From a phage: a DNA stretch of 64,000 nt. The notes beneath the pieces are model-generated. The model made no database searches and was not told the origin of the DNA. It worked only from the letters and a program-made list of their open reading frames with translations. Both the position numbers and the translations under genes were made by a program. The stretch lies in the NCBI GenBank assembly GCA_028522875.1, contig GCA_028522875.1_3659.1. One strand, 5' to 3'. Position 1 is the first letter of the stretch, and the number at the start of each line of letters is the position of its first letter. Of the stretch, positions 9,826 through 64,000 are shown one piece after another.

Positions 9826-9848
9826 CCCCCGCATAGCGGGGGTTTTTT
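9826..9848 (+). terminator. rho-independent terminator
   Basis: cccccgc-atag-gcggggg hairpin followed by tttttt. Confidence 0.65.
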
Positions 9849-9855
9849 GTTTATA

Positions 9856-9884
9856 TTGCGTATTACCTTAAAATTTGATAAAAT
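9856..9884 (+). promoter_or_regulatory. sigma70-like promoter TTGCGT-17-TAAAAT
   Basis: -35 TTGCGT 9856-9861, 17 nt spacer, -10 TAAAAT 9879-9884, upstream of gene starting 9913. Confidence 0.45.
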
Positions 9885-9912
9885 AGTGAAAAGAATTATT
9901 AAACTGGGGGTT

Positions 9913-10506
9913 AAAATGTTTATATGGGAAAGGCCACGATATCTCCCTGATATAAGGCTTGAACTTCTTGCAGATATAGTTAGGTTCAAAAGTCCATTCG
10001 GAGGAAAGGTACAGGAAGTTGTTTATGCAACACCTAACTGGAAAGGAACCCTTACTGTTGCCAATATCAGCGCCTCTCAGCTTATTGAGCTTAGAAATTT
10101 TATAGATAGTGTATATAAAGATGGGAACATATTCCTCATAAAAACATATGGTCACTCTGTAACAGCCAAAGAACCTATTGCTCTTGGACCAACAGGTAAC
10201 GATGATTATTTGAAAACAGTTGGTTGGGAACCCAATACAGATATAGCTAGAGCTGGGGATAAAATATCTGTCAATGATGAGTTAAAGGTTGTAACATCTA
10301 ATGTAAGAAGTGATGGCGTTGGTGCTGCGGTGATTAATATTCAACCTAGGTTGAGAAACCCGATTAAATCAGGAGATACAATGAAGATCCTTACAGAGTC
10401 TCCTAAAGGAAGATTCCATATCAGGGATATTTACAAGATAAAGCAAAAAGTTGATCAGATGGTCACAGGGGACAACATAATCATCAATTTCTTTGAGGAT
10501 TTTTAA
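9913..10506 (+). CDS. tail tip protein (lambda gpL / GTA g12-like position), hypothetical
   Basis: start moved to ATG 9913 (MFIWER, RBS ggggg) because track start 9847 lies inside terminator/promoter; first of a L-K-J-like gene set. Confidence 0.4.
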   Translation, partial: KMFIWERPRYLPDIRLELLADIVRFKSPFGGKVQEVVYATPNWKGTLTVANISASQLIELRNFIDSVYKDGNIFLIKTYGHSVTAKEPIALGPTGNDDYLKTVGWEPNTDIARAGDKISVNDELKVVTSNVRSDGVGAAVINIQPRLRNPIKSGDTMKILTESPKGRFHIRDIYKIKQKVDQMVTGDNIIINFFEDF

Positions 10507-10507
10507 T

Positions 10508-11059
10508 ATGATTAGAGCACCATTTGATAACTTATTTTTAGAAAAACTTGAGCAGGATCGTGTTGAGGTTATTATAGCAGCAAAACTAGAGCTGTCAACA
10601 GGGACTGTAAGATTGTGCTCAGGCACTGGCACAGTAATGATTGCTGGTCAATTGTTTGTTGGGATAGGTGGATCTGCAACAATAAGCGCTGTTACAGAAA
10701 AGGATGCTACAAACTTCGGATCCGTAGTAGCAACACTTAACGGATTTGACCCCAAATTTGTTGGGGATTTGCTAAAAACAGAATATGCAGGATGCCGGGC
10801 CACATTGTATATAACAGCAATGGAAAATGGTCTACCTGTGACTACAAATGGGCTGTTTGATGGCGTTATTACCGACATGGCGATCCACACAGGTGAAAAT
10901 AGTGCACTATCTATCTCCATATCTTCTATCTTCAACAGTTGGCTAAAAGGTTTCCCCGCAAGATACACAGAGGAAAGCCACAGATCCAACAATGATAACG
11001 ATAGATTTTTTAAATACGTTGACCAGGTTGCTAGTCGTCCAATTATCTGGGAGGTTTAA
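10508..11059 (+). CDS. tail protein, DUF2163-like (tentative)
   Basis: ATG 10508 with RBS gaggat; precedes NlpC/P60-like gene as in lambda/GTA tail tip clusters. Confidence 0.35.
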   Translation: MIRAPFDNLFLEKLEQDRVEVIIAAKLELSTGTVRLCSGTGTVMIAGQLFVGIGGSATISAVTEKDATNFGSVVATLNGFDPKFVGDLLKTEYAGCRATLYITAMENGLPVTTNGLFDGVITDMAIHTGENSALSISISSIFNSWLKGFPARYTEESHRSNNDNDRFFKYVDQVASRPIIWEV

Positions 11060-58012: not shown

Positions 58013-58378
58013 ATGGAACAAATGAACGATCAAGCGTCGGTTGCGATGAACGAGCAAGAACAACCTCAAGAATTTTTCTTAGGGTTAAGTAAAGATCAAG
58101 TGTCTCTTTTGCTAGTGCTTTCTTCTTTCATGGGAAGACTTCAGGAGCTCACACAACAACCGGAGGCTGAACAATTATTTCAGGCCCTGCGCGAAGAAGA
58201 AAAATATCGTCGTTTGGACTATGCCTTAGGTTGGGTAGCTCAACAACGAGATATGTTGATGGCCCTCTCTGGGACCACAAGTTTTGCAATGGGCCTGTTG
58301 GCTCAAGTTCAGGACAAATTAATTCAAGCAGGGTTTGCACACACGGCAAACACTAACGAAGAACAAGGAGACAAATAA
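58013..58378 (+). CDS. hypothetical protein
   Basis: 121 aa; RBS ggag. Confidence 0.45.
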   Translation: MEQMNDQASVAMNEQEQPQEFFLGLSKDQVSLLLVLSSFMGRLQELTQQPEAEQLFQALREEEKYRRLDYALGWVAQQRDMLMALSGTTSFAMGLLAQVQDKLIQAGFAHTANTNEEQGDK

Positions 58379-59604
58379 TGAGCGTTATTCAACAATTCGC
58401 TAACCCGATGAATCCGCGTGAAACTGTTTTACTGGCTCACGGTATGATCAAGCGTGTTAGCATCAAACCTATTAAAGGGGCTGATCCTGCAACAGGTATT
58501 AAAACCACCGTGTGGCAAGGTAAGAAAATTGAATCCAGCCACACCATCTCTTTACTGATTTCTGAACTGGATTCCTCTGATAACCTGCTTCAAGGTGGCG
58601 AAGAAGTCTGGATCAGCATGGGTGATAAGCTGCTTAAACCGGGTCATCAAGACTCTGTCTCTGTTAAGATTGATGACAAGTGGGAAACCGTAACACCAGG
58701 ATGGATCGTAAATATCCCTTTGAAGGCAAACGAGCATAACGGTAAGACCTATTACAAAGGCTCACTGGCTAAGATGGTCAAGCTGGGTGCAGGAGAGGCT
58801 CCAGCAGCGACTCAGCAGCAAAAACAGCAACAAGGTGCACAATCACAAGGTCAGAAGCAGAAACCTCAGCAGAATGCCAATCAGGACGTTTTACGCATCT
58901 ATGGCGATGTGACTCAGATTGTTGGCAACGTGGTTACTGTTAATGACCACAAGATCGGCGAAGGTGCTATGGTTGTCACGGATGAGCAGCTTAAAGACCT
59001 GGTGGTAGGTGGTCGTGTTGCAGCCATTGTTGACAAAGCCACCGGAAACATTATCAGTGGTTTCAAAGCCTATCCACCTAAGGCAGAGAACGGCACCCAA
59101 GGTTCTGGTGGCAAGCGTAAATCCTCTTACGACCCTATCGGTGTGGAGACGGGGCATAGCATCAATGCGTTGCAGATCATCCTGGATCGCGGGTTTAAGG
59201 TAGACGACCCACTAGGCGTGGCTAAAACACTGCACGTAGTCACCATTGAGCTTAAGAAAGAGTATGCTCAAGCCACCAACCGAACTGAAGATGAAGTAGG
59301 TGCCAGTGTCGGTAATGCGGTGTTGAACGCTTGTCGCCGTATTAACAAGAAAACGAAAGTTGATGATTTTGCAGCGGCAATTACTGCAGAAGCAAAAGAT
59401 GTCTTGACTAATCTGGCTGAGCCGTTGTACGATTGGATCAAGAACGGTTCTGGGTCCACTGACCATCAAGAACCCCAAGCTGCCAAACAGGAAGCAGCTC
59501 CACAGCAAAACACTGTAGACGCTCCTCCTGTAAATGATGAGGAAGATGACCCAATGGATCAGAATCCAGCACAGTACTCCTTTGATGATGACATCCCTTT
59601 TTAA
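58378..59604 (+). CDS. SSB-like protein with Gln-rich linker and bacterial-SSB-type acidic C-terminal tip (DDDIPF)
   Basis: 408 aa; RBS aaggag; linker ATQQQKQQQGAQSQGQKQKPQQ; C-terminus ...DEEDDPMDQNPAQYSFDDDIPF ends like E. coli SSB (DDDIPF); in replication gene neighbourhood. Confidence 0.5.
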   Translation: MSVIQQFANPMNPRETVLLAHGMIKRVSIKPIKGADPATGIKTTVWQGKKIESSHTISLLISELDSSDNLLQGGEEVWISMGDKLLKPGHQDSVSVKIDDKWETVTPGWIVNIPLKANEHNGKTYYKGSLAKMVKLGAGEAPAATQQQKQQQGAQSQGQKQKPQQNANQDVLRIYGDVTQIVGNVVTVNDHKIGEGAMVVTDEQLKDLVVGGRVAAIVDKATGNIISGFKAYPPKAENGTQGSGGKRKSSYDPIGVETGHSINALQIILDRGFKVDDPLGVAKTLHVVTIELKKEYAQATNRTEDEVGASVGNAVLNACRRINKKTKVDDFAAAITAEAKDVLTNLAEPLYDWIKNGSGSTDHQEPQAAKQEAAPQQNTVDAPPVNDEEDDPMDQNPAQYSFDDDIPF

Positions 59605-61826: not shown

Positions 61827-62018
61827 ATGGTAATTTTTAACCGGGATGGTATCATAGTTAGACAGCACCCGTTCCTTGAATACTATCAAATTGAGCAATG
61901 GTGCTACGGAGATTGCAGTCACTCCTATGGGCAAAGTTGGGGATATCGCACAGTTTTTGAATCAACAGACCTTGACAAAGTAAGACAGAAAGTTTTAGAA
62001 CTTATTAACAACAAGTGA
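61827..62018 (+). CDS. hypothetical small protein
   Basis: 63 aa; RBS agagag. Confidence 0.4.
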   Translation: MVIFNRDGIIVRQHPFLEYYQIEQWCYGDCSHSYGQSWGYRTVFESTDLDKVRQKVLELINNK

Positions 62019-62816: not shown

Positions 62817-63145
62817 CAGAGATCATCGTTTCAACTGCAGGGTATGTATTCCTGACAATCATTGCGCTGGCTATTCTGGTGGCGGTGTATGGATTTGTTA
62901 TCCTGCCTATTCTTGAGACATTTAGTTTGTGTCGGTGTTGGAGAAAAGCTTACGGACCACAACCGTGGAAAGACTGGTTCCATTTGGTGCGTATAGCGTT
63001 CTCTTATGCCTATGACCACTCTAGCAGTGCATGCGTAACCGGGTACCATGCCTACAACTGGAACTGGGAAGGGTTAGGGAGATGGACTGTTACAAAAACT
63101 ATACCCTTACGGTTGTACAAAGGAAAGAACACACTGGGAGCCTGA
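62813..63145 (+). CDS. small membrane protein
   Basis: 110 aa; ATGA overlap; hydrophobic N-terminal segment GYVFLTIIALAILVAVYGFVILPI. Confidence 0.45.
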   Translation: MTEIIVSTAGYVFLTIIALAILVAVYGFVILPILETFSLCRCWRKAYGPQPWKDWFHLVRIAFSYAYDHSSSACVTGYHAYNWNWEGLGRWTVTKTIPLRLYKGKNTLGA

Positions 63146-63174
63146 TATTTTAAGTTATCAGGTTGCCAGAGATC

Positions 63175-63212
63175 AGGAGGATTTCTAAAATGGATTTCCT
63201 CCTTTTGATATT
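63175..63212 (+). terminator. candidate terminator after last gene of rightward block
   Basis: aggagga ... tcctcct inverted repeat (large loop) followed by tttgatatttt. Confidence 0.3.
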
Positions 63213-63457
63213 TTACCTGCCATGATATTTTAAAATCCTTAGAAAATCAGAAAATGGATCGAAAACTAAAATGGATTTTTCAGAGTAGGCGCGACAAGCT
63301 GAATCACTCATCCTATCGTTTGCACCATATTCCAGACCACCATTACAGATTTCCCGCACATGCTTACATCTCGCTACTAGAACTTCCTCCACTCACCCTT
63401 GACCTTTTATAGCAATAATCCAACCACTATCTTGAAGTTGCGGTGCAGCTTTCCAGG

Positions 63458-63633
63458 TACTCGATCTGTTTTTCGTTTCAAATATTGAATTTTCTGAAAA
63501 TTTTTCTCGATAAATTTCTCAGTACTCGATCTGTTTTTCGTTTTCTGAATCGGATTTTCTGGAAATCGTTCCGGATCTCGACCTGAAATTTTTGGGGACG
63601 AAATCGATTTTTCGTTTTCAGAAATGGATTTTT
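63458..63633. repeat. iteron-like direct repeats in non-coding AT-rich region
   Basis: gtactcgatctgtttttcgttt at 63458-63479 and 63523-63544, related cgatttttcgttttc at 63605-63619; recurring aaatggattt units at 63190, 63254, 63271, 63622. Confidence 0.55.
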
Positions 63634-63740
63634 AAAATTTGTATATGGAAATATTTTAGGAGGTATTATTTTATATAGAATTGTCACGGTAGGTAATTAG
63701 CATGCTAACTAAATTTATGAAATGCGAAAAGTTCTCATTT

Positions 63741-63950
63741 AGAACTTTGAATGATAATCATTCTCGTTTGCAGAATAACGGGCAGGCCCGGTGATTGTCT
63801 CCCGGCCCCTGTTGCCCCGGCTTGTTATTATAGTATCACGCAGGACAAAGAAGGCAAGGATTTTTTGCATAAATTTTTAAATGATAATGATAACCGTTCT
63901 CATTTTATGCATCGCCCATCCCCGGTGGTTGTCTCCCCCGTCACCGGTGC
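63741..63950. repeat. two related ~75-nt units with GC-rich hairpin cores
   Basis: Both units carry aatgataat ... ttctc ... cccggtg(a/g)ttgtctccc ... ccgg; no ORF; located at window end. Confidence 0.45.
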
Positions 63951-64000
63951 CTGCCGTCCTTTCGATAGGTATATTGTGCCACCTGGCGGGGTCGCTGTCA

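Follow-up and report, generated by a model that had tools for sequence, protein, structure and literature searches.

The window analysed here, a stretch of phage DNA of 64,000 nucleotides (contig GCA_028522875.1_3659.1), ends in a noncoding region at positions 63146 to 64000, which we tentatively read as a replication origin or initiation-control region, where leftward early-type promoters would be aimed at an AT-rich core, with putative boxes for the host iron sensor Fur lying between them. This reading draws on three regularly spaced direct repeats (iterons), on the AT-richest 60-mer of the window, on a layout that is conserved in two subfamilies, and on published transposon data. The initial annotation had named a replication origin, a packaging site, or a genome terminus as candidates, of which the origin is the best supported, although these observations stop short of proof.

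Between positions 62000 and 64000, the window is 93 to 96% identical to more than 100 Vequintavirus genomes, and by this identity its source is a Vequintavirus, an rV5-like Escherichia coli myophage. A host origin of the region was rejected, as there is no match among 5,426 E. coli genomes. The last real upstream gene ends at 63145, directly before the region, and the other side is truncated by the window end. The gene-poor gap measures about 1.15 to 1.25 kb in relatives, and the noncoding control region, which we regard as essential, comprises window positions 63146 to 64000 plus about 300 nucleotides past the window end. After the gap, the relatives carry small early-type genes, each with an upstream TTGACA-type promoter. 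Sixteen records named “Campylobacter phage” (e.g., MG065654.1 and MG065666.1) are about 94 to 96% identical to the E. coli Vequintavirus genomes here and are themselves unannotated; these are probably mislabelled or contaminant assemblies.

The region is not protein-coding. Counting the variable sites at codon positions 1/2/3 in five Vequintavirus genomes, the neighbouring real genes vary mostly at position 3 (14/5/39, 2/0/21, and 19/9/32), whereas four open reading frames (ORFs) in the gap show no third-position bias (13/16/16, 7/10/6, 6/4/5, and 5/4/7), which bears out the earlier remark that about 850 nucleotides after 63145 lack convincing ORFs. The 59-codon ORF (Table 1) sits in the least conserved part of the gap, with 15 to 28 variable sites per 50 nucleotides between 63300 and 63450. 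From 63447 to 64000, eight Vequintavirus genomes show no indels, and substitutions are fewer than in the neighbouring genes. All natural indels among the eight genomes fall to the right of the window end, so natural deletions do not probe the dispensability of the elements between 63447 and 64000. Just past the window end, the small gene after the region (bas59_0099 or bas54_0103) has lost a part in phiWec191 and has another sequence in its place in Murica (L001 4700-4760 versus L002 7060-7300). No tRNA or tmRNA was found in the 64-kb window.

Transposon tolerance has been mapped in the sister phage Bas54 (MaxBurger) in the HIDEN-SEQ preprint of 2025 (10.1101/2025.11.20.689424, Extended Data Table 8). 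Over window positions 63100 to 64000, the alignment with Bas54 has a constant offset and is free of indels, and the TA sites that we recounted for the annotated ORFs (21, 3, 11, 15, and 14) agree with the HIDEN-SEQ table. According to this study (10.1101/2025.11.20.689424), the last real gene before the gap is dispensable, with 18 of 21 TA sites hit, while the “ORF” over iterons 1 and 2 (bas54_0100) is hit at one of three sites. The “ORF” over iteron 3 and the AT-rich stretch (bas54_0101) is hit at 0 of 11 sites and scored “Essential.” For the “ORF” over the Fur boxes and both GC-rich units (bas54_0102), 5 of 15 sites are hit, it is scored “Strong fitness defect,” and its mean reads are about 15-fold lower than in the neighbours (about 13 versus about 200). 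The flanking genes are 86 to 100% saturated, and each of the seven genes that follow was found to be dispensable or intermediate. The gap ORFs are not taken up by the authors, who argue against widespread polar effects (10.1101/2025.11.20.689424).

All 11 TA sites of bas54_0101 map to the AT-rich core (window 63633-63694, corresponding to Bas54 81668-81729). Since the transposon data coincide with a lack of coding signal in the codon-position test, the simplest reading is that the DNA of the region itself, or an RNA made from it, is required. The 0 of 11 TA sites shows that this DNA is needed, as expected of an origin required in cis, and not that it acts in cis in replication. Short “hypothetical protein” genes are annotated across the iterons, the AT-rich core, and the Fur and hairpin units (window 63440-64000 and its counterparts) in several GenBank records (bas54_0100-0102, bas59_0097-0098, rv5_gp192-194, and PVP-SE1 gp202-203); the annotated gap ORFs are probably spurious gene calls.

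Table 1. Features of the region, in window coordinates
Feature	Position	Strand	Description
Three TGATATTTT boxes	63143..63233 (63143, 63206, 63223)	+	Candidate protein-binding motif
Intrinsic terminator of the upstream rightward block	63172..63216	+	AGGAGGA...TCCTCCT hairpin (63172-63209), then a T-rich run
AAAATGGATTT units	63187..63280 (63187, 63268); third copy 63621		Amid an A-tract run (GAAAATCAGAAAATGGATCGAAAACTAAAATGGATTTTT)
59-codon ORF	63213..63392	-	Annotated gene in phiWec191; judged noncoding; variable sites 13/16/16
Three direct repeats (iterons), 47-nt family	63447-63493, 63512-63558, 63586-63632		Spacing 65 and 74; core 22-mers at 63457, 63522, 63596
AT-rich core, candidate DNA-unwinding element	63633..63694		76.5% AT
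Fur box 0 (putative)	63721-63739		Degenerate; 3 mismatches to AATGAKAATNATTMTCATT
Possible rightward promoter P(+)	63747..63776	+	-35 TTGAAT 63747-63752, 18-nt spacer, -10 CAGAAT 63771-63776; 8/12; overlapped by Fur box 1
Fur box 1 (putative)	63750-63768		AATGATAATCATTCTCGTT; 18/19 to AATGAKAATNATTMTCATT; 29 nt from box 0
GC-rich hairpin 1	63779..63819	-	Outer stem CGGGCA / TGCCCCG; core CCGGTGATTGTCTCCC 63788-63803; then minus-strand UUAUUCU (63778-63772)
Predicted leftward sigma-70 promoter P1(-)	63830..63857	-	-35 TTGCCT 63857-63852, 16-nt spacer, -10 TACTAT 63835-63830; predicted start ~63823
Fur box 2 (putative)	63880..63904		Two overlapping 19-mers; classical 19-mer GATAATGATAACCGTTCTC at 63883-63901
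GC-rich unit 2	63922..63947	-	CCGGTG...CACCGG stem; core CCGGTGGTTGTCTCCC 63922-63937
Predicted leftward early-type promoter P2(-)	63973..64000	-	TG + -10 CACAAT 63978-63973; -35 TTGACA 64001-63996, cut by the window end; predicted start ~63966

The 22-mer GTACTCGATCTGTTTTTCGTTT in the core of the iterons occurs exactly twice, at 63457 and 63522, where none is expected in shuffles of the 64-kb window, and a degenerate third copy with six mismatches starts at 63596. The direct repeat present twice with a related third copy had already been recognized in the initial annotation, and this description holds. The iteron stretch has no indels and 0 to 6 variable sites per 50 nucleotides in five to eight Vequintavirus genomes. 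Three repeats spaced by about 63 to 78 nucleotides are found at the equivalent position in Seunavirus, Mydovirus, Certrevirus, and Hena1, and Phapecoctavirus has three spaced direct repeats of a different sequence in the equivalent position. A lack of the repeats in relatives had been named as part of a result that would speak against a functional region, and this is not the case, with regularly spaced repeats present also in five other genera.

The region combines three regularly spaced direct repeats with an adjoining AT-rich stretch, as known from iteron origins. The AT-richest 60-mer of the entire 64-kb window starts at 63621. The AT-rich core varies in sequence among the relatives and is constant in AT-richness, which fits the expectation for an unwinding element. 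The second most AT-rich area of the window is found at 9841-10540, with 60-mers of up to 80% AT.

The predicted promoters P1(-) and P2(-) point left to the Fur boxes, the AT-rich stretch, and the iterons, and no coding ORF lies downstream of them on the minus strand; promoters aimed at an AT-rich element without a gene to express are what a transcription-primed origin would show. The P1(-) site reads TTGnnn, an unrelated spacer of 16 to 17 nucleotides, and TAnnnT in 18 of 21 sequences, three of which score only 7/12. The exceptions are rV5 and L036, in which the best hexamers are shifted, and L042, in which none was found. Conserved hexamers with freely varying spacers are the pattern that a working sigma-70 promoter leaves. 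P2(-) scores 10/12 with the TG in the relative L001 and has an A/T-rich upstream element. It is the sole minus-strand promoter among the 13 TTGACN promoters of a 12-kb relative locus (L002), and is predicted to be stronger than P1(-). The opposing P(+) is plausibly a rightward promoter in most genera.

Directly upstream of the P1(-) -35 hexamer, TCTTTACA (minus-strand reading TGTAAAGA) is present twice as a direct repeat, the copies being 10 nucleotides apart (L105 2130-2160), in Seunavirus, Mydovirus, Certrevirus, and Phapecoctavirus. These paired copies, which look like an activator-binding site, are absent from Vequintavirus.

The AT-rich DNA beside the GC-rich cores had been noticed in the initial annotation, but its identity as an array of putative Fur boxes, which tells more than any other feature here, was missed. 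The 19-mer at 63883-63901 agrees with the classical consensus GATAATGATAATCATTATC in 16 of 19 positions and is the sole such match in the 64 kb, where 0.03 are expected. For the 9-1-9 palindrome form, there are four matches in the window against 0.19 expected in 64 kb, all of them within 63721-63904. The proximal Fur box has its start at register -23 in 14 of the 16 lineages scanned, and further boxes usually follow at -52 and -81, corresponding to a 29-nucleotide phasing; elsewhere in the loci of these lineages, no Fur-type match was found.

Among bacterial genomes, there are more than 120 occurrences of AATGAGAATCATTCTCATT, the exact palindrome that is common in the relatives. We checked its context by the nearest downstream ORF at the first ten loci, taken in list order. 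The next gene encodes a TonB-receptor Plug domain at two loci, a ZnuA-type metal-binding protein at two, and an iron-type solute-binding protein, an FTR1 iron permease, a siderophore-type Lys/Orn N-monooxygenase, and an ABC ATPase at one locus each, with two unknown; eight of the ten next genes are thus of the types named, and in bacteria the palindrome lies ahead of genes for iron and metal uptake. The region is therefore predicted to carry Fur-type operators for the host iron sensor. Temperate phages can have Fur boxes ahead of cargo genes, as reported for the sit operon of lambdoid phages (PMC6969025). In the literature searched, we found no report of Fur boxes in Vequintavirinae, nor any function for the region, and the putative boxes appear to be previously undescribed.

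A sensitive blastn search with the whole gap showed that only the Fur box and hairpin 1 are conserved outside Vequintavirus, with an identity of 72 to 88%. The matches lie in Seunavirus, Mydovirus, Certrevirus, Serratia and Erwinia relatives, and Phapecoctavirus, which belongs to another subfamily, and these loci are almost always unannotated. Scans of viral contigs with short patterns gave mostly chance matches, with L008, L035, L036, and L169 being the only useful loci. The order of the modules is shared: GATATTT(G/T) boxes, “gaaatggtttt”-type runs, three repeats, an AT-rich stretch, one to five Fur boxes, a hairpin, and a counter-oriented sigma-70 promoter. This order is kept in at least seven genera of two subfamilies.

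In the mechanism that we propose, an initiator of phage or host origin would bind the iterons, and the AT-rich stretch would act as the unwinding element. Leftward transcripts from P2(-) and P1(-) would help to open or prime this stretch, or might instead be short RNAs that have to be excluded from it. Host Fur-Fe(II) would occupy the one to five boxes directly downstream of the hairpin and its weak U-tract, gating read-through and, in most genera, the rightward antisense promoter. Fur might here block read-through, shape the DNA, or repress the antisense promoter, and both activation and insulation are conceivable. Phage DNA replication would thereby be coupled to the iron status of the host.

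Several observations weigh against an origin under Fur control. The region has no DnaA boxes (with up to one mismatch) and no IHF consensus sites, and a clustering of Dam sites, as in oriC or the P1 pac site, was rejected, since GATC shows no enrichment (5.8 per kb versus 4.6 per kb in the window, and a mixed picture in other genera). An initiator gene is not evident, as the neighbouring proteins have no match in Pfam and none among the PHROGs with a known function. In the rV5 paper, an origin was sought and not found, and shifts in GC skew occur only where the direction of transcription changes, which is not here. The essentiality data are given per annotated ORF, and the left third of the gap has no score (22 intergenic TA sites at Bas54 81181-81463). 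If leftward transcription had to pass through Fur-bound DNA, it would have to be explained how growth in iron-replete LB is possible. The register of the Fur boxes has exceptions, the box of L169 starting at -20 and the array of L113 being phased by 23 to 29 nucleotides. In P(+), the A at position 2 of the -10 hexamer (-11 A) is missing in Mydovirus (CTGAAT) and PhiTE (CGGAAT), and the promoter is not treated as universal because of this missing critical base. The hairpin folds, on both strands, are no more stable than shuffled sequences (z = -0.04 to -1.25; hairpin 1, z = -0.86).

A further point of this kind comes from Bas54 itself, which has a second insertion-free noncoding region of about 2.5 kb (92.8 to 95.3 kb) outside the window, between the convergent genes bas54_0134 and bas54_0135, which could equally be the origin. 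It contains two Fur-type palindromes with two mismatches each, at 1847 and 1963 of locus L363 (Bas54 92300-95600; 1829-1981 and 1941-2263). The palindromes are 116 nucleotides apart, which is four times 29, and are accompanied by three GATATTTG boxes and several direct and inverted repeats. It might serve as another origin, or both regions might belong to one circuit.

The proposed origin resembles known systems in part. As in the iteron origins of lambda (ori) and of plasmids (oriV), regular direct repeats stand beside an AT-rich stretch, the region would be essential in cis, and the layout is kept though the repeat sequence differs between lineages. Here, however, there are only three repeats, which are long (about 47 to 70 nucleotides) and spaced by 65 to 78 nucleotides, with no recognisable adjacent initiator gene and no DnaA boxes, and with an array of putative Fur boxes.

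Transcription-activated origins include the primary origin of T7, with the promoters 1.1A and 1.1B and an AT-rich region, oriF and oriG of T4, with a promoter, an unwinding element, and an R-loop primer, and ColE1, with RNA II and RNA I. The region is similar in that two tandem promoters face an AT-rich stretch without an ORF to express, and the putative convergent promoter of most genera would produce an RNA antisense to the 5' hairpin, comparable to RNA I opposite RNA II. In contrast to these systems, the promoters here are of the host sigma-70 type and lie about 130 and 270 nucleotides from the AT-rich core, with the Fur boxes in between.

The boxes themselves resemble those of Fur-repressed promoters in Enterobacteria (e.g., iucA, fepA, and ryhB) and of temperate phages (in front of stx1 or sitABCD) in being near-consensus 19-bp palindromes, often in arrays, of which one may overlap a -35/-10 pair. 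Those described here differ in belonging to virulent phages, in controlling no protein-coding cargo gene, and in lying within insertion-intolerant noncoding DNA, where their spacing to a hairpin and a counter-oriented promoter is constant. Another parallel is the lambda oop RNA with its promoter pO beside ori lambda, which is antisense to cII and has LexA as its host repressor. Both cases would share a short, counter-oriented, terminator-ended RNA next to an origin and a host repressor, although for the region the RNA is predicted and the role of Fur is one that we infer, there is no sequence relation, and no coding target is present.

The two GC-rich units were expected from the initial annotation to be related, about 75 nucleotides long, and built around GC-rich hairpin cores. 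The cores are indeed related, with CCGGTG(A/G)TTGTCTCCC found in the window only at 63788 and 63922 (0.03 expected). The length does not hold, as the units lie about 135 nucleotides apart and what they share is a Fur-type box and the core. Unit 2 is nearly invariant across eight Vequintavirus genomes and pairs the conserved core differently from unit 1. In other genera, the 3' arm of the outer stem reads CCCGC, CCCGU, CCUGU, or CCUGC opposite GCGGG or GCAGG, a series of G-C, G.U, and A-U pairs on the minus strand that would be A.C mismatches on the plus strand. This variation gives modest support to a minus-strand hairpin 1, modest because independent changes are few. The predicted leftward RNA would start 6 to 8 nucleotides ahead of the outer stem and finish in the UUAUUCU that directly follows this stem, while a rightward RNA would start inside the stem.

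With RNAalifold, no common fold emerged from a MAFFT alignment, as the register of the arms differs from genus to genus. The Rfam scan that had been suggested for the region was run with Rfam 15 and returned no match below E = 0.2 in the window, with all scores far below the gathering score. There was also no match in five other genera and no meaningful one in the second insertion-free region of Bas54. The search for targets of the conserved loop within the window yielded only matches with three mismatches, which is the chance level. Small structured RNAs, raised as a possibility in the initial annotation, are thus weakly supported overall: the minus-strand promoters and the outer-stem variation favour them, and Rfam and the fold stability do not. 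Mimicry of the ToxI antitoxin was rejected, as only chance matches of 9 to 15 nucleotides to the 36-nucleotide ToxI repeat were found, none of them in the region, and the shared GGTGATT is a coincidence. The escape locus of PhiTE (pseudo-ToxI) is a different intergenic site.

In place of unit 2, other genera carry a highly conserved block of about 95 nucleotides, ACGCCACCCCACGGCGAAAAGGCGGGGCUAAC...GGUGGAUCGCCGGUAG (L105 2160-2290, minus strand), which is also present in L004, L005, L008, L103, L104, L106-L108, and L110-L122. The block has its own conserved minus-strand sigma-70 promoter, has no Rfam match, and shows two covarying base pairs (G-C in 8 and A-U in 7 sequences; C-G in 13 and G-C in 2), making it a candidate for a new phage RNA. 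On a Mydovirus-like contig (L120 6175-7100), an insertion has come between hairpin 1 and the block-2 element, which has lost its left end as a result, indicating that hairpin 1 and block 2 are separable modules.

These features lead to an alternative in which the region is a locus for an essential or important noncoding RNA. Short leftward RNAs from P1(-) and P2(-) would use the conserved loop GGGAGACAAUCACC to target host or phage mRNAs in trans. The P1(-) RNA would measure about 55 nucleotides and end with hairpin 1 and UUAUUCU, a Fur-repressed rightward antisense promoter would tune these RNAs to iron, and the iterons and AT-rich DNA would be a separate element. The geometry of promoter, hairpin, and U-tract suits the minus strand only, as does the outer-stem series, the core sequence is kept across genera, the other genera have the second conserved minus-strand candidate described above, and insertions in the Fur and hairpin part cause a strong fitness defect. 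We nevertheless regard this alternative as unlikely. Besides the negative Rfam and folding results and the weak U-tract, unit 2 departs from unit 1 in the pairing of its core, and no complementary target is found in the window. The alternative accounts for the right half only and leaves unexplained the AT-rich stretch, which takes no insertions and has no RNA features.

The left part of the region contains features of a transcriptional boundary. The hairpin at 63172-63209 followed by the T-run is a clear terminator of the upstream block, with a fold of -15.0 kcal/mol versus -8.4 for shuffled sequences (z = -3.16) and 1 of 200 shuffles being equally stable. The sequence TGATATTTTAA occurs at 63143, 63206, and 63223, and three of the four plus-strand TGATATTT words of the 64 kb lie within 63143-63230. 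Two to four copies of GATATTT(G/T) are found at the left edge of the gap in every genus examined, always on the plus strand. Recurring short aaatggattt units had been noted there initially, and the recurrence is real (AAAATGGATTT three times). The window-wide counts of AAAATGGATTT and of TGATATTTTAA are individually nonsignificant in 64 kb, and both words are clustered in the gap. The other genera have “gaaatggtttt” and gaaatcgatttc runs as counterparts, and a DNA-bending role for the A-tract run is suggested by its composition only.

The region might accordingly be a regulatory hub and nothing else, combining a terminator with operators for Fur and an unknown phage regulator and with promoters that set early and middle timing, and having no role in replication or packaging. 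Strong predicted early promoters directly downstream of the terminator would suit such a hub, and the GATATTT boxes recur in another noncoding region. The genes on either side, however, tolerate insertions for several kilobases, and the authors of the transposon study argue against widespread polar effects. As the flanking genes are dispensable, the loss of their regulation fails to explain the lethal insertions in the AT-rich stretch, and we consider a purely regulatory hub to be quite unlikely.

A packaging (pac) site, at which headful packaging would begin once the small terminase subunit has bound the repeated, A-tract-rich DNA, is disfavoured more strongly. The pac sites of SPP1 and P1 contain repeats plus bent or AT-rich DNA, and the region resembles them in this respect. 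The family packages by headful with circularly permuted genomes, PhiTE is a generalized transducer, and a pac site is cis-essential by nature, consistent with the transposon data. However, known pac sites lie in or beside terS, and the region is located at 81.2 to 82.4 kb on the Bas54 map, which begins with the terminase operon, about 80 kb away. Moreover, read depth in CB7 is reported to be nowhere raised, and it is not obvious what Fur boxes and counter-oriented early promoters would contribute to packaging. Taken together, this makes a pac site very unlikely. The genome terminus put forward initially does not agree with the genomes of rV5, PhiTE, and CB7, which are reported to be circularly permuted (CB7 is described as T4-like permuted) and thereby make a fixed terminus unlikely; 2 of 124 GenBank records start within the region, which is no more than chance.

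Finally, it is scarcely credible that the small ORFs (homologues of bas54_0100, bas54_0101, and bas54_0102; rv5_gp192-194) encode essential microproteins. Several GenBank records do list them, and the screen counts them among the essential genes, but they lack the third-position bias that is strong in the neighbouring genes. The bas54_0101 frame opens with TTG without a ribosome-binding site and ends six codons early in the window, a 92-codon frame starts inside Fur box 1 and spans the promoters and both hairpins, and the annotated gap ORFs differ from genus to genus, so that no frame is common to the genera.

Upstream of the region, a 408-residue protein encoded at window positions 58378-59604 on the plus strand has a long Q/P-rich linker and then ends in ...DDDIPF, the C-terminal tail known from bacterial SSB. 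Pfam gave no match for this protein, and the one PHROG that it matches is of unknown function.

Origins with iterons, origins activated by promoters, and Fur boxes are individually well known, and what appears to be new is the presence of putative Fur boxes in Vequintavirinae and a proposed function for this region. The HIDEN-SEQ screen lists two of the gap ORFs as essential or strongly required genes of unknown function, and our analysis argues for a cis-acting or RNA element instead. Going beyond the origin itself, it is possible, though rather doubtful, that virulent rV5-like and phi92-like phages wire an essential noncoding element, probably the origin, to the iron sensor of their host, with replication being tuned by or conditional on Fur-Fe(II) and with the second insertion-free region of Bas54 in the same circuit. 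If true, Fur boxes held in a fixed register in at least seven genera of strictly lytic phages would be a direct link from the iron status of the host to lytic development, and such a link would be relevant to phage therapy at iron-limited infection sites.

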